This document shows positions 759 through 60,003 of a stretch of DNA of 64,000 nt, piece by piece. Source of the stretch: a virus; IMG/VR virus record IMGVR_UViG_3300045988_084534, positions 37,276-101,275 of that record. The stretch is one strand, 5' to 3'. The position numbers and the translations under genes were made by a program. Each line of letters opens with the position of its first letter. Position 1 is the first letter of the stretch. The notes under the pieces were generated by a model. That model did not search any database. It saw only the letters and a program-made list of their open reading frames with translations, and was not told where the DNA came from.

Positions 759-3700
759 CGAAGCCCGCGAACAATCCATCAAAGCAGAATTTGAGGATTT
801 TGCAAATCGCGTATTATCCAAAGAAGTAGTAGCAGGATTTTATGATGCTACTGAAGCGGCATTACAATTTATTAACACAGATTTTGGTGCAGCCACCACG
901 AGAATCATAGGCACAACAACGGCTATTACAAGTCTGGTTGGTATTCTTGGCACAATGGGCGCAAAATTGGTGCTTGTTGGTAAACAGCTACAGGCGGCTG
1001 GTGCGGCTAATGGCGTTCTTGGATTCCTTACTACGCCTAAGACACTGCTTATTATAGCTGGCGTGGTAGCCGCTATTGCTGGCTTAGTTGAGGTTATTAA
1101 GTCGGTTGAAAAAGCTCAATATGAGGCAAATCATGCTTTTGAGATAGCAAATCAAAAATTATCTGAGACACAAAACGAAATTAAGTCTACTGAGGAAAAT
1201 TTACAAAGTTATAAAAATTCTCTTAAAGAACTTAATGATGTGGCTGAAAAAGATAGAGGTCTTGCTTGGCAACAAGAACGTGCTGAAATTGAATTAAATA
1301 TTCAAAGTACAGAGACATACTTAAAGCTGTTAGAGCAAAAAGCCAAGTTAGAAGCGCAAACGGCGTATGAATCTAAGTTGCCAACTGGTTATACACTTGC
1401 AGGCAACCTAAACGAAAATAAATATAAGACCGAAGATTATTTTGGCGACTATTTTGCACCTGGCAATTCCCAAGTACAGTTGTCTATGGAGCAAGCTGGT
1501 GTTATAACGGCTGTGTATGACAGCGAATACGAGGCATTATCTAACATCGTTTTAGCACTTGCAAATGCTACAGATGAGCGCTATAGATACATCGAGGCAG
1601 AAGATTTAGCTCAACTTGAAGGCAAATCAACTGAAGAACAAATTCAGATTATGACTGATTTGTTAGGTAATTTGGGAATCAAGTTGTCCGCTACCACTGA
1701 AACGGCTACGCAATCTTTTGCCGCAATGGATAATCTTGCCAATAAATCTGGAGAACTTTCAACTAAAGAGAAAGATTTGGCGCAACGATACTTAGACCTG
1801 TATCGAAATATTGTTATCCTTGGTGTGGCAACCGATGAACAAACAAACAGCTATATTCAACTATTGGCTAGAATGTCTGCATTTGACTTGGAGACGGCTA
1901 GCACAACAGAAAAGATTAGTTGGTTAGCAAATGCTTTTGGTATAACAGCTAGTGAATCTGCAAATCTATTATATGCAACTGGTCAATTATCTCTGATTCA
2001 GGCTCAAGCTGCACGCGACATGGTACAACTTTCTAACGGTATGTGGGCTGCTAAATCTGCGTGTAAACAACTTGACGATGGGACATGGGAATTAAAAGAA
2101 AATTTAGACGAAACCGACGATTCAGCAGAAGACTTGTCCGATTCTCTCAATGCCTATCAAAAATCCATCAAGCAAGTAACCGATGATGAAAAAGCATTTG
2201 TCAATTCGCTATTTGATATGAATGGCAATTTGACCAAAGCGGCTCAACAAGCTCTTACCGCTGATAGTGCTATGGCGAGTTATGCACAGAAAATCCTAGA
2301 GGCTCAACAAGCACAAACGCAGTCTGATTATTCTAATTTAATACTTCAAATTGGTAAGGTTGGAGAAGCAGCTTACGTTAGTAGTAATAGATTACAGTCT
2401 TTGATTGCTAGCATTCCGGGCGTTACTTCTAGTACATGGTCTGCTGAAAATCAGGAATCTGTGATGCGCCGATTGTTTAACAAGCAAACGGGCAAGAACT
2501 GGAAACAAGACGCGGCAGCATATAGTGAATGGTCATCGAATTATTTGTTAAATTTGAGCCAAAAAAAATATGAAGAACGCTTAAAAGAGCTACAAAATCA
2601 AGCAAATGCTATATCTTCATTTGTTCCATCTACAGGTGGCGGAGGTGGCTCATCTTCTACAACATCTCAAAAATCCCCGGCTCAAATTGCGGCAGAAGCG
2701 GCAACGAAAGCGGCTAAGTATAGACTAGATGCCTTACAAGATGAGCTTGATGCGCTCAACGATGAAAAATCGGCACTAGAAGATGAAATTCAGCGAATCC
2801 AAGATGAGGTCAAGGCTGAATATCAGGCTGAGATTGATATTCTCAACGATAAGAAAGAGGCTATCCAAGAGGCATATGAGGCATGGGAAGAAGATGCTGA
2901 TGCTGTACTTGATAGACTCAAAGCAGAAAAGGACGCTATTCAAGCAGTCATTGACGCTATTGACAAAGAGAAAGAACAACTTGAAGCGGCGACCGCCTAT
3001 GCTACTGAATATGCCTCTAGGCAGATTGATGAAATTGACGCGCGGCTAGATGAGCTAGATGCCCGTGAAGCCGAAATCAATAAAAAATATGATGACGAGC
3101 TAGACAAGCTAAAAGCGACCAATAAAGAGCTGGACAAGCAAATTGAGCGCGAGAAGCTGCTACAAAATCTAGCATCTGCTAAAAATAAGAAAAAGCGGGT
3201 ATATTCGGCGCAACAGGGTTATATCCTAGTTGATGATATTGCCGCAATTTCTAAAGCACAGGCAGAGCTTGATAAATTTGACCGTCAGCAAAAACAATCT
3301 CTTGAGAAACAGGAGATTGAAAATAAACGCAAACAAGAGCTGTTAGCATCTGGTGTCGAGGCTGAACGCGCGGCATTAGAAGAGCAGAAAAAGCTCTGGG
3401 AAGAATATAGTAAAAAATGGTCTAGTATTGTTTCTGACTATGAGTTCAAGCAAAATAGACTAGCTTATATTCAGCGATATGGTAAGGCTATTGAGCAACA
3501 GAACTGGCAACAGCGCAATAGAACGGTTGACCAAGCTACCAAAGAATACGCTGATATTATGGCGCGGCTATTGGCTGAACAAGAGCGGATGGCGGCTAAA
3601 GAGGCTGAAATTGCGGCTCAAGAGGCGGCAATGGACGAAGCCAGAATTGCCAATCAGAAAGCAACTGCCGCTATTGAAAAGCAAATCAGCGACCTACAAG

Positions 3701-10928: not shown

Positions 10929-11137
10929 ATGACAAATATTGAATTGGCAAAAAAGCACGAAGATGTAGCTAAGAAATATAAGACAGTATATATGTGGGGC
11001 TGTTTTGGTCATCCAGTGACCGAGGCGATTATCAGAGAAAAGGCGGCGCAATATCCTAGTTGGTATACAGCGGCAAAGCAGAGAGAACTAAGAAAGCTGG
11101 TCGGCAAGGGATATTTTGCATTTGACTGTGTAAATCT
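10929..11137 (+). CDS. NlpC/P60-type cell-wall peptidase (lysin), exon 1
   Basis: Ends in the ...GKGYFAFDCVNL catalytic-Cys motif. The downstream stop at 11157-11159 lies in the intron. The 5' splice site is at U11137 or alternatively U11131; both keep the frame. Confidence 0.75.
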
Positions 11138-12809
11138 CACTGACTTTAGTGCGCAATAATAGTAATGTTATTGTGTGTTTATTTGAATTGCTGGAAACCC
11201 CTTAGAGACATATCAACCACAACGTAGCTATGAAATATGGGCAAGCGTGATGGTTTGAAAATGATATAGATTGGGCAATCAGCAGCGAAGCTCCGAATAG
11301 GAGAACGTTCAACGACTATCCTGTTAGAGGGAGTACAACGCAAACGATTGGCGTTGGAAGCGGATAAGACCCTATTATATAGGGTGATGATATAGTCTCA
11401 TCTCATATGAAAGTATGAGGAAAATTGTTTGAGTTCACTTATAATACTATAAAAGCAAGGAGGTGGGTATGTGGACAAAAACAGACAACATTACAAGATG
11501 TCATTGCTTAAATGGTGTGAATCGAATAATAGTAATTTGGTTTACGAATGGGATGAAGCAAATGAAATGGCTATGAACGAGATTGGGTCAAGTAGTGGAA
11601 TAAAAGTGAAATGGATATGCTCTAGGTGTGGTTTTCATTTTGAGCAAAGACCTTCAGATAGGGTGAGGGGGCATGGTTGTCCAAAGTGTGCTAGAAAATC
11701 TCATTCAAGCGTCCCCGAAACGATATGTTATTTGGCTATCAAGCAGTATTTTTCAGATGCGATACATGGATATAAAACCGATTGGCTTGGACGTAAAGAA
11801 TTGGACATCTTTATCCCATCTATTAGTGTTGGCATTGAATATGATGGAAATTCTTGGCATAATAAATCCAGAAAACGAACAGATAATGACAAGACGTGGC
11901 TATGCGCCCAGCATAATATCTTGATCTATCGTATAAGAGAAAACGGATGCGAACCAATGGACGACGAGTCAAATAATATTTATTACAAGCCAAGCAAACA
12001 ATACAATGCTCTTAAGTATTCTATTATAGATGTACTAATGAGGCTTGGACATAATAATGTTGCTTTTGATGACTGGGAGTCGCTTATTAATAAGTCTAAA
12101 TGTGAATTTTCCAGTATTGAAAGAAGTAAATCTATTGGTGTAATAAATCCAGAATTTAGTGCAAAATGGGATTACGACAAAAATTATCCTTTAACGCCAT
12201 ATGATATATTGGCTCATTCCAATCATAAAGTATGGTTAAGATGTGATAAAGGACATTTGTATAAAAGAGCGCCAAACTATTCAAATCAAAAAGAATGCCC
12301 CATATGTATAAATAAAATTGTGCTTGAGGGCTATAATGATTTGGCAACAATAAGACCAGATTTGGCGTTGGATTGGAATTATGATAGAAATGGCGAATTA
12401 AAGCCAACGGAAATAACGTTCGGTTCTAATCGACGTATTTGGTGGAAATGCCATGCTTGCGGAAACGAATTTCAATCATCTCCAAATGCTAGAAAAGATA
12501 ATATGGGACATTGTTCAAAATGTGTGTTCACCAATGGCAATGAAACATTATCAAAAAACAAAGCGGTTAATAATAGTCTTGCTGAGTTTTATCCAGAAAT
12601 CGCAAAAGAATGGGATTATAACAATAATGAAAGAACGCCAGACAATGTTGCAAGGATGTCTGGATTGGAAGCGTGGTGGATTTGTTCAAACGGTCATTCT
12701 TGGAAGGCTAGTGTTCATAGTCGAACGCATGATGGGAAAAAGTGTCCATATTGTAAACAAACTCAAACAATAAACTGCTAGGCGTAGTGAACCTAGTTGA
12801 AAGAAAATG
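11138..12809 (+). mobile_element. Group I intron (td-like) carrying a homing-endonuclease ORF near its 3' end
   Basis: The core GUUCAACGACUAUCCUGUUAGAGGGAGUAC...GGAAGCGG...GAUGAUAUAGUCUCAUCUCAUAUGAAAGUAUGAGG matches the td-like cores of the other introns. The 5' block CCCUUAGAGACAUAUCAACC...GAUUGGGCAAUCAG matches the TMP intron. The tail UAGUGAAC...AAAAUG ends in G12809. Candidate P1 is UGUGU/GCGCA and candidate P10 is CUUUA/UAAAG. Confidence 0.75.
11471..12781 (+). CDS. Intron-encoded putative homing endonuclease: PD-(D/E)XK (Vsr/DUF559-like) core plus four treble-clef zinc-ribbon repeats
   Basis: GTG start after AAGGAGGTG. The nuclease core is ELDIFIPSISVGIEYDGNSWHN. There are four repeats of W(D/N)Y(D/N).N....P......S...(V/I)WW.C..GH.(W/F)......R......CP.C. 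Confidence 0.7.
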   Translation: MDKNRQHYKMSLLKWCESNNSNLVYEWDEANEMAMNEIGSSSGIKVKWICSRCGFHFEQRPSDRVRGHGCPKCARKSHSSVPETICYLAIKQYFSDAIHGYKTDWLGRKELDIFIPSISVGIEYDGNSWHNKSRKRTDNDKTWLCAQHNILIYRIRENGCEPMDDESNNIYYKPSKQYNALKYSIIDVLMRLGHNNVAFDDWESLINKSKCEFSSIERSKSIGVINPEFSAKWDYDKNYPLTPYDILAHSNHKVWLRCDKGHLYKRAPNYSNQKECPICINKIVLEGYNDLATIRPDLALDWNYDRNGELKPTEITFGSNRRIWWKCHACGNEFQSSPNARKDNMGHCSKCVFTNGNETLSKNKAVNNSLAEFYPEIAKEWDYNNNERTPDNVARMSGLEAWWICSNGHSWKASVHSRTHDGKKCPYCKQTQTINC

Positions 12810-13290
12810 TAAAGGAATTTTATGGGGCTGGAATGGTAATGCTAGGTCATATACAGGCGGCGCAAGATATGCTAGTAATGGCGTACCAGATGTTAGCGCA
12901 GATGGCATGATTGGCAAATGTAAGAATGTATCAACCACTGGCTGGGATAAGCTGGAAATTGGCGAAGGGCTATGGATGCCCGGACACTGGGGTCTATATA
13001 TTGGCAATGGTCTAGCAGTAGAATGCACGCCTATTTGGAAGAATGGTGTGCAAATCACGGCTGTTGGCAACATTGGTAATAAAGCAGGATATAATAGCCG
13101 CAAATGGACTAAACATGGAAAATTACCATATATTACCTATGTTCAGCCAGAGCCAGATACAGATGATAAGCATGAGGCGAATAAAGCCAAAGTAAAGGCG
13201 CGATTCGGCTTTACAGACAGCACTATTAAATGGCTTGATTCTTATAAATATAATAAAGACATCATGGACAAGCTGGCTAATAAAGGCTAA
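12810..13290 (+). CDS. NlpC/P60-type cell-wall peptidase (lysin), exon 2
   Basis: Continues KGILWGWNGNARSYTGGARYASNGVPD...MPGHWGLYIGNGLAVE (catalytic His region). The exon 1 plus exon 2 length is a multiple of 3. Confidence 0.75.
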
Positions 13291-25509: not shown

Positions 25510-25926
25510 TTATTCACATTTTGTCCAGCCACATGACTTACAAATTTTGCAACCGCCCTCAAACATAACGGGTTCACCGCATTCAGGGCATACCTCTGTT
25601 GAAATTGTGGCTAGTGCATTGCTCAACTTTTTAATGCTGTCTGTTGCTTTATTAGTAGCCTCTCTTAGATTCTTAGTCACATTAACCACATCATCCTCTT
25701 TATCATCTAGTTCACTCTGCATCTCATTATACATATCTACTAGAGCATTACCAATAGCCATAGGACAACAAGACCCCTTACTGGTATCATGGTGAGTTGC
25801 CTTGCGAGTAGCATAAGATGGGCATACACCAGTTGAATCAAGCTGGTCTTTGATGGTCATAATATCCACACCAGCGCGGCATAGTAGACTGACCATGCGG
25901 CTTAGACCTGTCATGAAATTTGCACA
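25510..25926 (-). CDS. nrdJ: Class II (B12-dependent) ribonucleotide reductase, C-extein
   Basis: Starts with the +1 Cys, CANFMTGLSRMVSLLCRAGV. The C-terminal zinc ribbon is CPECG...CKICKSCG. Confidence 0.85.
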   Translation of the reverse strand, partial: CANFMTGLSRMVSLLCRAGVDIMTIKDQLDSTGVCPSYATRKATHHDTSKGSCCPMAIGNALVDMYNEMQSELDDKEDDVVNVTKNLREATNKATDSIKKLSNALATISTEVCPECGEPVMFEGGCKICKSCGWTKCE

Positions 25927-26886
25927 ATTTCCAGTAATAAAGATTTTACCATTACGACGCAACACAAGCAAACCGCTTGGAACTGTAAAACAATAAGATT
26001 TGCCGTCGATTGGTTTATAATCTTCAATAGTTGCAGTTGATAAGCCATGTACGTTTTGGGTTGTCCAACGCACTCTATAACTATCTTGAATATTTTGTGT
26101 TCCGTTGTTCAATGAAATTGTAGCTCTAAAACCAAGCCTTGTCAATGCAAACTGGATAAAATCAGCTTCGTGCTTTTTTGACGTATAATAAGAACCAAGT
26201 CGGTTTCCTTCGCCAACAGAGCCATCCCAATATACACACTCATCCACAATACATTTTAATTGCTCATCATTACAAGCATACCATTTTGGTGTAAATTGCT
26301 TGTCAATAAACCATTGTTTAACACTTGGAATTGGATGAATATAAAACACGGTATATTCGGTATTGTTGATGTTTTTTTCAGTCCATCCAATATCACAATT
26401 TGTTAGTAGTTGACGAATACGAATTTTCTTTCTATCTTTTTTTACGTTAATAACAATTTTATTTCCATCAAATGTACCATCCGCATAAATTGCAACAAGT
26501 AGTCTAATTATCTCATTACTAAGCGGAATACCATTTGTATTCATAGAGAAGGTGGTTGGAATATGACGATTTTTAGAACCAGCCATGAAATCTTTTACAG
26601 TAATAATTTCATGGGTTAATTTGCTTCTAATTCCAGACATATATTTTGCATAATTTTTATACAAATACATTCTATGATCTTCTGAAAGAACCATATCCAA
26701 TCCAGTTGTATTGTGGAAATATTTCATATTCTCAACATTGTCATTAACAACGTAAGAAATTGGATAGGTTAAAGAAGCCGTTCCATCTTCATTGTACTGC
26801 AACACTTGTTCATACTCATCCATATTATATTCGCTAATTTTTTTCCACTCGATACCATTAAAATATTCAGTATCTTTGTCTACGCA
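25927..26886 (-). mobile_element. Intein (320 aa) with LAGLIDADG homing-endonuclease domain inside nrdJ
   Basis: Begins with Cys (CVDKDTEY) directly after extein ...KGSTGG and ends ...LVLRRNGKIFITGN before Cys+1. Has a block B-like SEDH. LAGLIDADG-type motifs are LLVAIYADGTF and ECVYWDGSVG. Removing it restores KGSTGG-CANF. Confidence 0.85.
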
Positions 26887-28034
26887 TCCACCAGTCGAGC
26901 CTTTATTGAAATATACCTCTTGTAGATTGCCGTCAATGGGGTCAAAGAATGCTAGAACATGAAGTGAGCCGCATCCTGTCTGGATTTTGCGCTTTTTGCC
27001 AATCAGGTCATTGCTTGGTTCAATGATTGAGCCGCGAGGTAGAATGGGGGATGTGGATTCAGGCTTGGTTTCATTATCTTTCTTATTGTCAGTAAGCAAG
27101 ATTCCCTGACGGATTGCATTAGGTCTAAAGATTGTACATCCCTTAATGCCTAGCTTCCAGCACTGCATATAGATGTCCTTGACTTCATCAAACGATGCTT
27201 CAGTAGGCACATTGATTGTCTTGCTAACGCTCATGTCGGTATATTTGCTGATAATAGCAAGCATAGCTACATGGTCATCGACAGACATATTAAGCGCAGT
27301 TGGGAAAATATCATGCTCGTCAAAATCAAGTTGCTCACCCTTATCCTTTAGCTTATGATAGAGATAATAAGCATAATCCATCATCTTGACGATTTTTACG
27401 TCCTTATCGTCCTGACCCCCAATTTTTACCTTGCGGTCATAGCTAAGAGAGAAGATTGGCTCAATGCCACTAGAGCAGTTGTTACCAAATACCATAGAGA
27501 TCGTGCCGCACGGTGCAACCGCTTGAATCTTGGCGTTACGAATACCATATTCAGCCATCTCGGCAATGACATCATGTTCTAGCACAGATTTGACATATGT
27601 GTTATCTGCGTGTTTATCTGGCTCACATAGAGGGAAACAGCCCTTTTCTTTAGCAAGCTGAACTGACGCATAATATTCTGCATTAGTAATCATCTGCATT
27701 AGAGATTCAACATAATCTCTTGCTTCCTGACTATCATACTTCATGCCAAGCATAGCCAGCATATCTGCTAAACCAGTAATGCCAATACCAATGGTGCGCA
27801 TACTCTTCTGATAATTTTCGTAAATCTTGTCAGGGAATTTATTTACATCAATAATATCATCAAGCATACGGACTGCAATAGAGATTGTATTTCTTAGAGC
27901 ATCAGTATCAAGATGTGCTTGCTTGGTAAATGGATTCTTTACAAAATTGTGTAGGAACAATGAGCCAAGATTACAAGCACCGCCATATTGCGATGGGTCT
28001 GTTGCATTGATTGTTCCTGCTAGATATTCAGCGC
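26887..28034 (-). CDS. nrdJ: Class II ribonucleotide reductase, exon 2 / N-extein part
   Basis: Spliced junction reads NP-C-AEYLAGTINATDPSQYGGACNLGSLFL. Followed by RTIGIGITGLADML, APCGTIS and SKTINVP. Confidence 0.85.
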
Positions 28035-28204
28035 CTCACACAATGCGTATCAAATACAGTTCGCATCGTGCGCTAGACTATCGCATCCCCTTGGGGTCTC
28101 CTCGCTTAGTCGTTCAGGCTGGCATTACCCTTGCCCCCTGTAGCTGTGTATTCAGCGTCCAAGTCAATCAGAGGAGATTTTACATCCGCACGTTTATATG
28201 GCTA
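28035..28204 (-). mobile_element. Compact (about 170 nt) ORF-less group I intron in nrdJ
   Basis: P1: exon AUCCGU pairs with intron GCGGAU (28184-28189), with U.G at the splice site. P3 is UCUCCUC/GAGGAGA, P7 is GACUA/UAGUC, P8 is the hairpin ACCCCAAGGGGA, and the terminal nt is G. Splicing creates the catalytic NPC codon (ccg u|gc). Confidence 0.8.
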
Positions 28205-29027
28205 ACGGATTACTACAAACAATTCTTTCTACATACCATGCAGGATTGCGATTATTGGCATTATCCTCATAGAATACGCCCGGTTCACCATTATCATATG
28301 CCATCTGCATGATTTCGTTCCAAATATCACGAGCTGGCACTAGCTTGGTAAATTGCTTATCCCACTTATCTGGCGGCAGTTTATTGCCCTTCTCGTCATA
28401 GATAGGCCAATGTAGTTTAACTTGACCATTCTCAATGACAAGATTCATAAAAGCATCATCTACAACAACAGATAGGTTGAAATGATTTAGCCGTCCTTCT
28501 GTAGCTGATTTAGCATGAATAAATTCAAGAATGTCAGGATGATATACACTGAGCATACCCATGTTTGCACCGCGCCTTGAACCTTGCTGCACAGTAGCCG
28601 TCTGAGCATTAAATACATCCATGAAACTAACTGGACCAGATGCAATAGCATCATTACGGGTTCTATAACCATTAGGCGCTAGATTGCTAAAAGCATAACC
28701 AATTCCGCCACCAGCTTTATGTGTCATAGCGCCTAGCTTAACCGCATTAAAAATCTGCTCCATGCTATTACCAATAATAGGTGCTACAAAGCAGTTATTG
28801 AGAGTTAGCTTTTCGCCAATACCGGCATTGCTCATGGTGCGTCCAGCAGGGAAGAAATAGCCTTCTTTCATAATACTGAAGAATCTATCTGCCCATTTAG
28901 GCGCGTTCCAATTTCCTTCGGCGGATGCTACAAAATCAGCTACACGCCATAGCTGGTTATCATATGACTCACCGTCCTTTTGGTATCTATCTTTCCAGAT
29001 AGATTCATATACCTCATTTACAAACAA
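28205..29027 (-). CDS. nrdJ: Class II ribonucleotide reductase, exon 1
   Basis: TTG start after AGGAGG. Motifs GRTMSNAG, LNNCFV, GGGIGYAFSNL, RRGANMG and ...VCSNP. The tracked stop at 28194 lies inside the intron. Confidence 0.85.
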
Positions 29028-36920: not shown

Positions 36921-38545
36921 TTAAAATATTCACTCCAATCATATTCATTTTCTTTTGGTTTATCAATAATTTCATATCTCTCAATAATGGCTTGAGGCTT
37001 AATCTGTCCATTATATTCATTCAATCCAAGCGATACTACTACTTCTATGGATTTGCCTTGAGCAGATTCAAATTGACTTGCTTCTTCATTACTAACAAAG
37101 AATTTGATGAACTCAATGTCGTCCTGAACTAGCTTAACGGTAGTTGAACGATTACGATATACATAAATCTGCGGAGATGTTAAAGTACAATGGAATAACG
37201 GCTTGCTTACATCTTTAGCCCATAGGATATTATTTTCTACACACACATTTGCAAGATTGCGTGTGATATTATTAGGCTCGATTTGAGTCGCTACTTCAAT
37301 ATCTGGCTCTACGTCCAAATCAAGTCCATCTAAGAATCGCGCAAATCGCTTGAGGTTTGATTTCTTGACGGTGATACCAGCTGCGGCATCATGCCCTTGA
37401 CATTTAGCTAATCCTGATTCATTGATAATCTCAAGTAAATCAATGGGGCTACGCATCGAGCCAGACCATGTTGTGCTATTTAGCTCTCTCAGCAGGAATG
37501 TAGGCTTATTATATTTACCACAGAATTTATTGGCTACAAGCCCTAAATAGGATTTATTCTCAGGTTCGCCAAAGCCTATAATAACCTTATGAGATGTGTC
37601 AAGCCCATCTGACAGCTTATCTACGACCTTCTTGACTTGATAATCCTGCTTGGACTTGACGGCTTTCATAGCCTTTATAGCGGCTTCTGGCTCAATTTTG
37701 CCAATCAGCGTATCAAAGAATAACCGCTTAGTAGACTGGTCATCGCTACGAGCCAGCGCATTAGCAAGAGGCGCAATGCCAAATGCCACACCCTCTGGAT
37801 TAACGCCACGATTGCAACAATGCTCTAAGCAGTATTTAATAAATGGATTGGTTGGATTCGTCAAGCCGTCATATACATATTTGCGGTTCTCAAGTGAACG
37901 TAAGCTGCAAATATCAGATATTAGACTAACTGCCACTAGGTCTTTGAAAGATTGATTTGAGCCAAGCGCACAAGCAAATTTTTCTACAACGCCTGTACCA
38001 CTAATATCTATATTACAAGTATATGTGACCTTAACACCATTATAGATGCGTTCAACTAGCTCAAGTTGGTCATCTGGCATTGGTGGAATAATAACACTAT
38101 TATATGGATTGACTACAACGGCGTATTTATTTTCCCTTTTTGCAACAAATTCAATGATATGGTGGTCTAAGATAATAACCTTGATACCATGTTCATATAG
38201 TTCTCTACAAGCATCAACCTCATTCGACCCAGCATCAGGGATAATAAGCGTCTTTACATTTGCGGCAATAATATCAGATAATAGGTCACTACAACCATGC
38301 TGTTTGCCGGTGTGAAAAAACATAATCGGCTCGATGCTTGGATGATATTCTTTACATAGCATGTAGGCAATAGCAGCCGAACAAGCCCCATCGAGGTCGG
38401 AATCAACAACAATGCCAATATTACCAGTAATATGATTAAACATATCAACAGCTACATCCATATTCTTATACATATCAGGCGATTGATATTCAATACTATC
38501 TGGATTTAGATATGCGTCAACATCAGTTAATTGGCAAGCGGCCAA
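36917..38545 (-). CDS. DHH-family phosphoesterase / RecJ-like ssDNA exonuclease
   Basis: Motifs VVDSDLDGACS, IIPDAGS, IILDHH and QGHDAAAG. Confidence 0.7.
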   Translation of the reverse strand: MAACQLTDVDAYLNPDSIEYQSPDMYKNMDVAVDMFNHITGNIGIVVDSDLDGACSAAIAYMLCKEYHPSIEPIMFFHTGKQHGCSDLLSDIIAANVKTLIIPDAGSNEVDACRELYEHGIKVIILDHHIIEFVAKRENKYAVVVNPYNSVIIPPMPDDQLELVERIYNGVKVTYTCNIDISGTGVVEKFACALGSNQSFKDLVAVSLISDICSLRSLENRKYVYDGLTNPTNPFIKYCLEHCCNRGVNPEGVAFGIAPLANALARSDDQSTKRLFFDTLIGKIEPEAAIKAMKAVKSKQDYQVKKVVDKLSDGLDTSHKVIIGFGEPENKSYLGLVANKFCGKYNKPTFLLRELNSTTWSGSMRSPIDLLEIINESGLAKCQGHDAAAGITVKKSNLKRFARFLDGLDLDVEPDIEVATQIEPNNITRNLANVCVENNILWAKDVSKPLFHCTLTSPQIYVYRNRSTTVKLVQDDIEFIKFFVSNEEASQFESAQGKSIEVVVSLGLNEYNGQIKPQAIIERYEIIDKPKENEYDWSEYFN

Positions 38546-58335: not shown

Positions 58336-59407
58336 TAAGTCATTTCATCTACACAGTAAGCAGAGGTGTTTACTCTTACTCCTTCGCACATCCTAACAAT
58401 TTGTGCCCCTCGTAATCTAATGATTACACTTTCTCAACCCTCGATTACTCTGACTTACCCAACACCCTCTTATCATTAAGCAAGTTTACATCGTAGTTGT
58501 TGGGTGCCTGAATGACTAGGCATTACATAAGACTCATATTGGGCGTGCTTACTACACTTGATATTGAAATCTAGCCCCTCTGGTGCGGGATAGGGAACTC
58601 GAATCCCTACGCCTTGCGGCAACAGATTTTAAGTCTATCGTGGCTGCCATTACACCAATCCCGCATATTCAATCTCAAGCCGACTTCCTACCTCATAGCT
58701 ATTTCTAGCATCGGCTCGTGAATGATGTTTACATATGATGTGCTATTACGCCAAAAAATCCATGTCTCTAAGGCATATCTCAACATACAACATAATGCTT
58801 AGAGAGACAAATTTGTATGCCAACAGTCGCTAACTGCTCTTGAGAACAAGTGGATATTGGACTACCATTTCTGGACGGGGCGACCGATTTATCCTTATGC
58901 AAAGCACTATGTTCATCCACTGTTAGTGACTCGCGATTGGGCTTCCTCCAATTTAACTGTCACCATTGCCACGATTTACTCTTTAGACGATGGCTGCTTC
59001 TAAGCCAACGTTTCATATGCTTGAATAATATCCTTATATCACCTTTGCCGTTATGTTTTTGTCCTCATGCTAACGGAACACGCTCAGGCGCGACCCCAAT
59101 TCTCTATTAAGCTATCTGCCGCTTCTCAAACTCTGCACAGACCCGCTTCACAGGTGTGATATAGATTTGACGGTTATCTTCAAATCCGTTCGGATATTAT
59201 ATTGATACAGTATTTGTCTTTGTACTTCAGACACTCCCACCGCTGTATCACCGGGTTCGAGCCGTTTCTTTACTCTAGCTGGCTCTATACACTAGCTCTA
59301 AATGATGGCTGTTCATCTCACTCCATTTACTACTGCTCCTGTACTCCCCAGTCCGGCGTTCCATGGATAACGTCATCTGTGGGCTTCGTAGCACCATCAT
59401 CTTTACA
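58336..59407 (-). ncRNA. Large non-coding locus collinear with 23S rRNA domain II (5' segment 58665-59407, embedded tRNA-Leu, 3' segment 58336-58580)
   Basis: There is no credible - strand ORF. A consensus promoter lies at 59414-59442. Blocks matching E. coli 23S occur in 23S order, including an exact GUUGGCUUAGAAGCAGCCAUC (58989-59009) and GCGUAAUAGC (58742-58751). See the findings for the full block list. The ends are approximate. Confidence 0.6.
58581..58664 (-). tRNA. tRNA-Leu (anticodon UAA), type II, CCA encoded
   Basis: Acceptor stem GCGGGAU/AUCCCGC, 3-bp D stem, anticodon arm AUAGA-CUUAAAA-UCUGU, variable arm GCC-GCAA-GGC, T arm AGGGA-UUCGAGU-UCCCU, and discriminator A followed by CCA. 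Confidence 0.9.
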
Positions 59408-59913: not shown

Positions 59914-60003
59914 TGGTCTTCCCGGCTGGGTACGATCCAGCACATGCCTTGTGAGGGTCTTACTCTTATAAGGAGTAGGCTTTTCCAATTAAGCTACGGG
60001 AAG
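59914..60003 (-). tRNA. Atypical tRNA, anticodon UAU (Ile/AUA) with a 19-nt variable region and a non-canonical T-loop
   Basis: Acceptor stem CUUCCCG/CGGGAAG followed by ACCA, D arm GCUU-AAUUGGAA-AAGC, anticodon arm UACUC-CUUAUAA-GAGUA, variable region AGACCCUCACAAGGCAUGU, and T arm GCUGG-AUCGUAC-CCAGC. Confidence 0.6.

Follow-up and report, generated by a model that had tools for sequence, protein, structure and literature searches.

Introduction

The presence of an intron and an intein together in a phage ribonucleotide reductase (RNR) gene is a textbook situation (SPbeta bnrdE; PMC3653736). In Bacillus phage SPbeta a group I intron shares one gene for the RNR large subunit with an intein ('lightning strikes twice'), and nrdE of Brochothrix phage A9 contains three introns and an intein. 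Here we analyse nrdJ in a 64,000-nucleotide stretch of viral DNA (the window; IMG/VR record IMGVR_UViG_3300045988_084534, positions 37,276 to 101,275). The window gene appears to combine a group I intron with an intein, as SPbeta bnrdE does, but whereas bnrdE and A9 nrdE belong to class Ib, nrdJ belongs to class II. It further differs from both in that its intron is 170 nt long, lacks an open reading frame (ORF) and belongs to a family missed by the Rfam model RF00028, and in that its intein lies in the TSCPD domain.

The gene had been singled out from the sequence alone, as a class II RNR of 795 amino acids interrupted by a group I intron at the NPC active-site codon and by a LAGLIDADG intein at GG|C (the original prediction). 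All three proposals are upheld by the analysis below. We conclude that this is very probably a working phage class II nrdJ bearing two independent selfish elements, one predicted to be removed at the RNA level and the other at the protein level. More interesting than the pairing of intron and intein is the compact, P2-less intron family, which Rfam does not detect although uncultured phages carry it in abundance.

Results

Removal of both insertions restores a complete NrdJ

Once both inserts are taken out, the remaining exons (Table 1) sum to 823 + 1148 + 417 = 2388 nt, or 796 codons specifying 795 amino acids and a stop, so that the proposed coordinates check to the base. The intron junction then reads ...VCSNP-C-AEYLAG..., with the Cys codon split T|GC, and the intein junction reads ...KGSTGG|CANFMTG.... 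The resulting product scores 527.6 bits against TIGR02504 (NrdJ_Z; cut-off 399.95), with the NPC..E motif intact, and passes this cut-off only after both removals. It aligns with PRK08665 in a single stretch, from position 28 to 758 of 759. Its best match in the Protein Data Bank (PDB) is Thermotoga maritima NrdJ (1xje; E 7e-80), with an alignment unbroken across NPC(G/A)E in which NPCAE of the spliced product faces NPCGE.

A protein search returned more than 100 uninterrupted homologs (87-94% identity, 780-814 amino acids, on contigs of 85-99 kb), with which the product is colinear. These nrdJ homologs begin MFVNEVY at the position matching the TTG start of the window gene and read VCSNPCAEYLAG without a break. 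When the precursor was aligned with five homologs (91-95% identity), the gap expected at the intein position was present and comprised exactly 320 inserted residues between ...KGSTGG and CANFMTG....

The nucleotide boundaries are set by an allele, L190 (product P0070, 794 amino acids), which has neither intron nor intein and is continuous through SNPCAEY. Its DNA fixes both junctions to the base, at AATCCAT|GTGCGG and GGTGGA|TGTGCC; the intein-less site reads …GGCTCTACTGGTGGATGTGCCAATTTCATG…, and the joined extein junction peptide would read KGSTGGCANFMTG. Compared with L190, the whole-gene dN/dS is 0.084 and is low in each of the three exons, which by this sequence comparison are under purifying selection. 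The low ratio therefore argues that the interrupted gene is kept functional, and this would require both removals. A relative of the window phage, L124 (IMGVR_UViG_3300013947_000002), carries nrdJ with the same 170-nt intron and without the intein; intron and intein have thus been gained or lost independently. The L124 gene also has an extra insert of about 865 nt (2416-3280) at KAGG|GIGYAF, with sub-threshold RF00028 matches of 34.8 and 22.5 bits and a 183-amino-acid ORF that looks HNH-like by eye.

Read directly from the DNA, the gene falls into two long frames. The first covers the all-alpha domain of RNR together with barrel positions 1-211, and stops at LAI* just past ...VCSNP. The second, mechanically delimited as 27960-25510, encodes the remaining barrel and the TSCPD domain and gives a weak LAGLIDADG signal. 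Translation of unspliced RNA would end at 277 amino acids, since the frame meets a UAA at nt 13-15 of the intron. With a stop so soon after the break in exon 1, and given that split phage RNRs exist (PMC3653736), the locus could be read as genes in pieces, in which two polypeptides assemble as in NrdA of Aeromonas phage Aeh1, or as a case of ribosomal bypassing, in either case with no splicing of RNA. We give this reading next to no chance: the break falls inside the catalytic Cys codon, so neither fragment carries the Cys; exon 2 has neither a start codon nor a ribosome-binding site (RBS) at the junction; and the insert is a conserved, covarying RNA structure that obeys splice-site rules.

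A 170-nt group I intron at the active-site codon

The sequence evidence supports reading the 170-nt insert as a group I intron that splits the thiyl-radical Cys codon of the NPC motif. Because RF00028 does not recognise it, this assignment rests on a helix model and on family covariation. The model, built by hand and supported by that covariation, comprises a full group I core, with P1, P3 to P9 and the P3/P7 pseudoknot (Table 1), and six of the eight helices are present in the single-sequence minimum free energy (MFE) fold. P7 is predicted to form a guanosine-binding-type site in which a G-C pair lies beside a bulged nucleotide. The absence of P2 and P7.1/P7.2 speaks against subtype IA.

The intron belongs to a large family. 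A megablast search against GenBank phages found no relatives, and sensitive blastn gave the first two, in Roseobacter phage CRP-118 and in the coat gene of the metagenomic podovirus MW202674. In the latter (L002 2995-3150) the intron splits a P22-like coat protein gene, and a 39-amino-acid 'hypothetical protein' is annotated over it. Exact-motif scans of IMG/VR then recovered 74 stretches, followed by at least 120 more. The family is thereby placed in more than 190 viral contigs, as against only 2 of 50,697 GenBank phage records. A profile built from 166 family introns, with the window and its near relatives left out, gave one match in the window, at 28196-28075 on the minus strand (E = 4.8e-28).

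Nine introns inserted in RNR genes (167-190 nt) were aligned. Of the cells in the proposed helices 94% were paired, and in 19 of 41 pairs both partners had changed. This result was not equalled in any of 500 shuffles, and in slid controls the paired fraction was only 34-51%. All six P1 pairs and the 3' end GUGUGA(C)G are kept in every one of the nine. P10 also covaries in this alignment, its position +2 alternating between C-G and U-A in step with the Cys codon (UGC or UGU). To include motif variants, 135 representatives less than 88% identical were gathered with nhmmer. Pairing across these was 97% for P3, 99.8% for P4, 100% for P6 and P7 and 96% for P8, with multiple pair types, including C-G to G-C and A-U to G-C or U-A exchanges in P7. 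The extra P7 pair across the bulge (C or A) occurs in all 135 (A-U in 94, G-C in 37, C-G in 4). A P1-like stem with U·G beside J1/3 was found in 153 of 194 family members by a crude script count. P1 compensates with its exon, the Pro codon CCA being matched by the guide GUGGAU (L208, L218), and P9 shows a compensatory C-G to U-A change between the window and L124.

Two further observations concern the sequences around and within this core. Four synonymous differences from L190 cluster within 12 nt of the intron site (28195-28215: AGT/AGC, CCG/CCA, TGC/TGT and GCT/GCG), and CCG among them supplies the base required by P1; the cluster would fit either a co-conversion tract or selection for P1/P10 pairing. 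Within the family alignment, the J8/7 G (AUGCGA) becomes A only where the P4 U-A pair becomes C-G (4 of 4 cases; columns 122 and 41/63), a co-change that may reflect a base triple or could stem from a single lineage.

Many viral contigs (L101 5000-6900, L005, L085, L109 and others) hold multiple copies of the intron within a few kilobases, which suggests that genes were invaded at many sites. Some of these multi-copy contigs have ORFs that begin inside the P6 loop (…GGGGCAAGAUUAUGAAA…).

A lineage sited in RNR genes

The 3' tag ATGCGATAGTCYAGCGCAC of the RNR-sited introns occurs in 56 IMG/VR contigs, and 59 of 66 matches are followed by an exon that reads C-x-E. The proteins encoded on either side differ greatly (GTNPCSEIILRPYQF, ATNPCGEQPLPP, GYNPCAEQSL and CSNPCAEYLAG), which indicates that the lineage targets conserved N-P-C DNA rather than one gene family. 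Among 46 parsed copies, 31 are ORF-less (167-190 nt) and 15 contain an ORF in P8 (597-784 nt). The P8 ORFs encode either a GIY-YIG protein of about 200 amino acids (Pfam 27.4 bits, above 22.6) or a protein of about 131 amino acids with weak HNH similarity below the cut-off (14.6 bits; cut-off 21.4). In a set of genome contigs the 19-nt tag gave nine matches. Of the eight covered, L239 carries the intron (NPCAEE exon junction) and L240 its 3' region; the other six (L241, L242 and L244-L247) are probably chance matches, their flanks being unrelated. No claim about cellular genomes is drawn from these matches.

It is tempting to propose that the ORF-less RNR introns of 167-190 nt are autonomous self-splicing ribozymes, the smallest natural group I introns, and that they form an undescribed P2-less subgroup which uncultured phages often carry and cultured phages hardly ever do. 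One of its lineages would then be a specialist that homes into the codon of the thiyl-radical Cys (AAYCCNU|G) in widely differing RNR genes. We hold this proposal only tentatively, as possible but more doubtful than not.

A class-1-type intein with an invariant Gly-Asn end

Sequence comparison and a predicted structure support the 320-residue in-frame insert as a class-1-type intein with a LAGLIDADG endonuclease. The splicing residues Cys1, LSEDH and Asn320 are present (alignment positions C9, H79 and N328, invariant or nearly so), both LAGLIDADG Asp-Gly pairs are kept (...IYADG and ...VYWDG; A143-D144-G145 and W228-D229-G230, again invariant or nearly so), and the residue at +1 is a Cys that TSCPD domains conserve. 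An AlphaFold (AF2) model of the intein has a pLDDT of 87.2 and a pTM of 0.88. Its top Foldseek matches are solved inteins of the HINT fold (E 8e-15 to 2e-8), first among them TliVMA (8e-15), PI-SceI, PhoVMA and PI-PfuI (E 1e-15 to 1e-10), followed by I-DmoI and I-Tsp061I at E 4e-6 (I-DmoI-like endonuclease fold).

In databases 69 proteins match the intein, at up to E 1e-105 and mostly over the full 320 residues, in unrelated hosts: DnaC/IstB-like and DnaA ATPases, terminase, RtcB, PhoH, guanylate kinase and an ABC ATPase. The usual insertion point in this family is the P-loop, GxxG|[C/S/T]GK; two of the 69 are NrdJ fragments with the intein at the site used in the window. The family is found in 169 GenBank phage records, nearly all of them unannotated in this respect, and its conserved ends read CVDxDTEYF ... 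LSxxH ... YCFTVPSGxLVLRRNxxIFITGN|[C/S/T]. For instance, a 668-amino-acid 'RNA ligase' of Klebsiella phage FKP3 (PP895363; L003 1595-3601) contains an unannotated member at residues 181-492 that ends FITGN|C, and in the final 78 nt of the intein its DNA is 81% identical to that of the window. The GC content of the window intein (0.327) compared with that of the exteins (0.41; intron 0.50) suggests recent import. A literature search gave no report of inteins in the TSCPD domain, which would be a new insertion site.

The original prediction noted that the ...ITGN end lacks the penultimate His, which is borne out, and suggested splicing by a variant mechanism, which is not needed. The penultimate residue (G:6) is Gly in the window and in all 23 aligned members, and the Gly-Asn end therefore characterises the family and does not reflect damage. 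Gly, Lys or Ser is frequent at this position in class-1 inteins of phages, and in mycobacteriophage Bethlehem the gp51 intein, which ends Gly-Asn, splices completely and is slowed by a Gly to His change (PMC5050341); a missing penultimate His is a known, tolerated variant (PMC5050341; PMC4031507). Invariance of Gly-Asn together with this splicing-competent precedent makes a variant mechanism unnecessary.

The missing His would also fit a class-3-like route in which the N-terminal junction is attacked not by Cys1 but by the invariant Cys of block F (YCF). The defining nucleophile of class 3 inteins is Cys F:4; they have no nucleophile at residue 1 and possess a Trp(B:12)-Cys(F:4)-Thr(G:5) triplet (PMC4031507; PMC5050341), of which the present family shows little or no variation at Cys F:4 and Thr G:5. 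We consider this route very unlikely. At least 90% of members retain Cys1, and none of the Trp expected of class 3 is seen, B:12 being Met in the window and variable in the family. Moreover, Cys is the second commonest residue at F:4 among inteins generally (PMC4031507), and the Bethlehem gp51 intein, despite its Gly-Asn end, is treated as class 1 (PMC5050341). Because Cys1 is kept and Trp B:12 is missing, the window intein is read as an ordinary class 1 intein in which another group would aid Asn cyclisation, a role for which the invariant Arg-Arg of LRRN may be a candidate.

Evidence that weighs against a functional locus

Several results count against a working gene with two active elements. 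The intein shows block motifs A, B and F/G, but profile searches found no intein-domain match in Pfam (E<=10) or NCBIfam, nor anything else relevant in NCBIfam. The only Pfam match on the intein, LAGLIDADG_3, scored 18.8 bits, below the 22.5 cut-off, and the intein has no sequence match in PDB. The intein call is therefore based on the gap relative to orthologs, on the motifs, on the homologs and on the fold predicted for the insert. For the intron, RF00028 gave no match at E<=10 on the slice 27950-28300 (351 nt) and none on 12 family loci, and Rfam at gathering thresholds and at E<=10 returned only a chance hammerhead-like match (E 3.8). The same model does detect another intron in the window (11122-11419, 93.9 bits). 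However, RF00028 is known not to span all group I structural subtypes (PMC6125680), so the missing match is not decisive. In the window copy P8 has only 3-4 bp with a tiny loop, P5 and P6 are minimal, and the fold energy of the intron is unremarkable (single-sequence MFE, z = -1.67); unaided folding is thus not assured. We infer splicing, endonuclease activity and mobility from sequence.

The same features could describe a decayed group I relic that no longer splices alone, leaving the gene dead or dependent on a phage or host protein for RNA folding. The unmatched RF00028 model, the lack of P2 and other peripheral helices, the very short P8, the weak fold score and the missing intron-encoded protein would all be expected of a relic. 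We nevertheless judge decay improbable, since the ORF-less copies that make up 31 of the 46 parsed RNR-sited introns keep every core helix with compensatory changes, the exon dN/dS is low, and L124 has kept the same intron with its compensated P9. In addition, splicing with protein assistance would still be splicing. The preferred reading therefore remains a functional, doubly interrupted nrdJ.

Other features of the window

A second, canonical group I intron, the one detected by RF00028 at 11122-11419, lies within 10929-13290 on the plus strand. It interrupts a small gene right after ...GYFAFDC, a sequence that resembles the catalytic-Cys motif of NlpC/P60-type cell-wall hydrolases, although Pfam did not confirm a hydrolase; the likely second exon is the frame at 12787-13290 (...PGHWGLYIGNG...). 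Between the two parts of this gene, a 436-amino-acid ORF (11471-12781) encodes four DUF4379 treble-clef zinc fingers. The minus strand of the window also encodes two tRNAs: tRNA-Leu(UAA) at 58581-58664, whose variable arm is long, and tRNA-Ile(UAU) at 59914-60003. Rfam reported only the first.

Table 1. Coordinates in the window of the interrupted nrdJ gene, its intron helices and its intein motifs
Feature	Position	Strand	Description
Whole interrupted nrdJ	25510..29027	-	TTG start at 29027; AGGAGG RBS 8 nt upstream; stop at 25510-25512
Exon 1	28205..29027	-	823 nt; residues 1-274 and first base (T) of Cys275 codon
Exon 1 domains			Pfam Ribonuc_red_lgN and first part of lgC
Intervening sequence (intron)	28035..28204	-	170 nt; ORF-less, group I-type; phase 1 of Cys codon
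Exon 2	26887..28034	-	1148 nt; last two bases of Cys275 to Gly657; N-extein end ...FNKGSTGG
Intein insert	25927..26886	-	960 nt = 320 codons, in-frame; CVDKD...FITGN, then Cys
Exon 3	25510..25926	-	417 nt including stop; C-extein from +1 Cys, CANFMTG...
Exon 3 content			Rest of TSCPD domain (Pfam) and C-terminal CxxC...CxxC zinc-ribbon tail
P1	28210-28205 / 28189-28184	-	Last 6 nt of exon 1, AUCCGU / guide GCGGAU; U·G at 5' splice site
P10	28192-28190	-	CGU can pair with 3' exon GCG; 3-5 bp
P1-P3 joiner		-	7 nt, A-rich; no P2
P3	28176-28171 / 28103-28098	-	CUCCUC / GAGGAG; encloses P4, P5 and P6; ends after 5' strand of P7
J3/4			UGAUUGA, 7 nt
P4	28163-28160 / 28140-28137	-	CUUG / CAGG
P5	28156-28153 / 28146-28143	-	GCUG / CAGC
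P6	28135-28133 / 28119-28117	-	GGC / GCC
P7	28111-28107 / 28080-28076	-	GACUA / UAGUC; extra pair A28113-U28075 across bulged C28112; pseudoknot, predicted G-binding-type
P8	28096-28093 / 28090-28087	-	CCC(C) / (G)GGG; between P7 strands
J8/7	28086-28081	-	AUGCGA; between P7 strands
P9	28070-28062 / 28047-28039	-	9 bp hairpin
Intron 3' end	28035	-	Terminal UGAG; last intron base G28035 (omega-G)
Intein block A, Cys1	26886-26860	-	CVDKDTEYF
Intein block B	26703-26674	-	..LSEDH
LAGLIDADG motif 1	26502-26470	-	LLVAIYADGTF
LAGLIDADG motif 2	26250-26215	-	IVDECVYWDGSV
Intein blocks F/G	25995-25927	-	YCFTVPSGLLVLRRNGKIFITGN

Discussion

These comparisons are consistent with the following model of expression. 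The pre-mRNA would fold so that the end of exon 1 pairs with the intron guide, AUCCGU with GCGGAU, and a free guanosine held at the P7 G-C pair would attack after the wobble-paired U. The terminal G of the intron would then replace the free guanosine, and the exons would be joined with UGC restored. Translation of the spliced mRNA would give a precursor of 1115 amino acids whose C-terminal TSCPD domain holds the 320-residue intein, immediately ahead of a conserved Cys. Splicing by the class-1 route would involve a thioester at Cys1 and transfer to Cys+1, followed by cyclisation of Asn320 without a penultimate His, to yield the 795-amino-acid NrdJ and a free LAGLIDADG endonuclease that could cut intein-less alleles in co-infecting relatives. 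The window intron has no endonuclease gene, whereas P8 of sister introns in this position houses a GIY-YIG gene or an HNH-like ORF, and it may for this reason be a minimal derivative, spread by recombination or with help in trans.

The practical consequence is that gene callers split such genes, here into ORFs of 277 and 816 amino acids, with the equivalent outcome in GenBank for CRP-118. Through such fragment calls, these genes are overlooked or cut short both in functional annotation and in virome surveys that rely on RNR. Rfam cannot flag the intron family, and a covariance model made from the present alignment would recover its members. Should the 170-nt form self-splice, it would be a natural group I ribozyme of very small size, on which one could test how far the core can do without peripheral structure. 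For its part, the intein represents a well-populated phage family with an invariant Gly-Asn, useful for studying Asn cyclisation without a penultimate His.

Among known inteins, the nearest in layout is that of Bethlehem gp51, which is also class 1 with Cys1, LAGLIDADG motifs and a Gly-Asn end; the likeness is one of layout, and the mycobacteriophage relatives found for the window intein are primase inteins at about 24% identity. The best whole-model fold matches, PI-SceI, PI-PfuI and TliVMA/PhoVMA, likewise unite a HINT domain with a LAGLIDADG endonuclease at a sequence identity of 10-14%. At 320 amino acids the window intein is smaller than these and has no nameable extra DNA-recognition region.

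With canonical group I introns (Tetrahymena large-subunit (LSU) rRNA, Azoarcus tRNA-Ile, T4 td/nrdB/nrdD and Twort nrdE) the window intron shares the helix order P1-P3-P4-P5-P6-P7-P3'-P8-P7'-P9, the U·G at the 5' splice site, the terminal G and a P7 with a pair across the bulge. We take its P7 (GACUA/UAGUC with the bulge pair) to match the guanosine-binding layout of Tetrahymena, C262-G312 / A263 / G264-C311. It differs from the canonical introns in lacking P2, in the 7 nt between P1 and P3, in a J3/4 of 7 nt, in the family size of 167-190 nt and in going unscored by RF00028. The Azoarcus intron measures 205 nt, and to our knowledge about this length is the usual lower size bound of group I introns. 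A literature search on the smallest or minimal group I introns gave nothing usable; the GISSD IA3/IB4 sets span 203-392 nt (PMC6125680).

The closest described counterpart of the window intron is that of Roseobacter phage CRP-118, a 41-kb podovirus (OR420741; L001 3008-3180). Its GenBank record shows two coding sequences, gp44 and gp45, and no intron, and starts gp45 about 230 nt too late. A homologous 172-nt intron nevertheless lies there at the identical N-P-|C position, in an RNR of a different clade (GTNPCSEIILRPYQF), where it joins ...FGTNP|C SEIILRPYQF.

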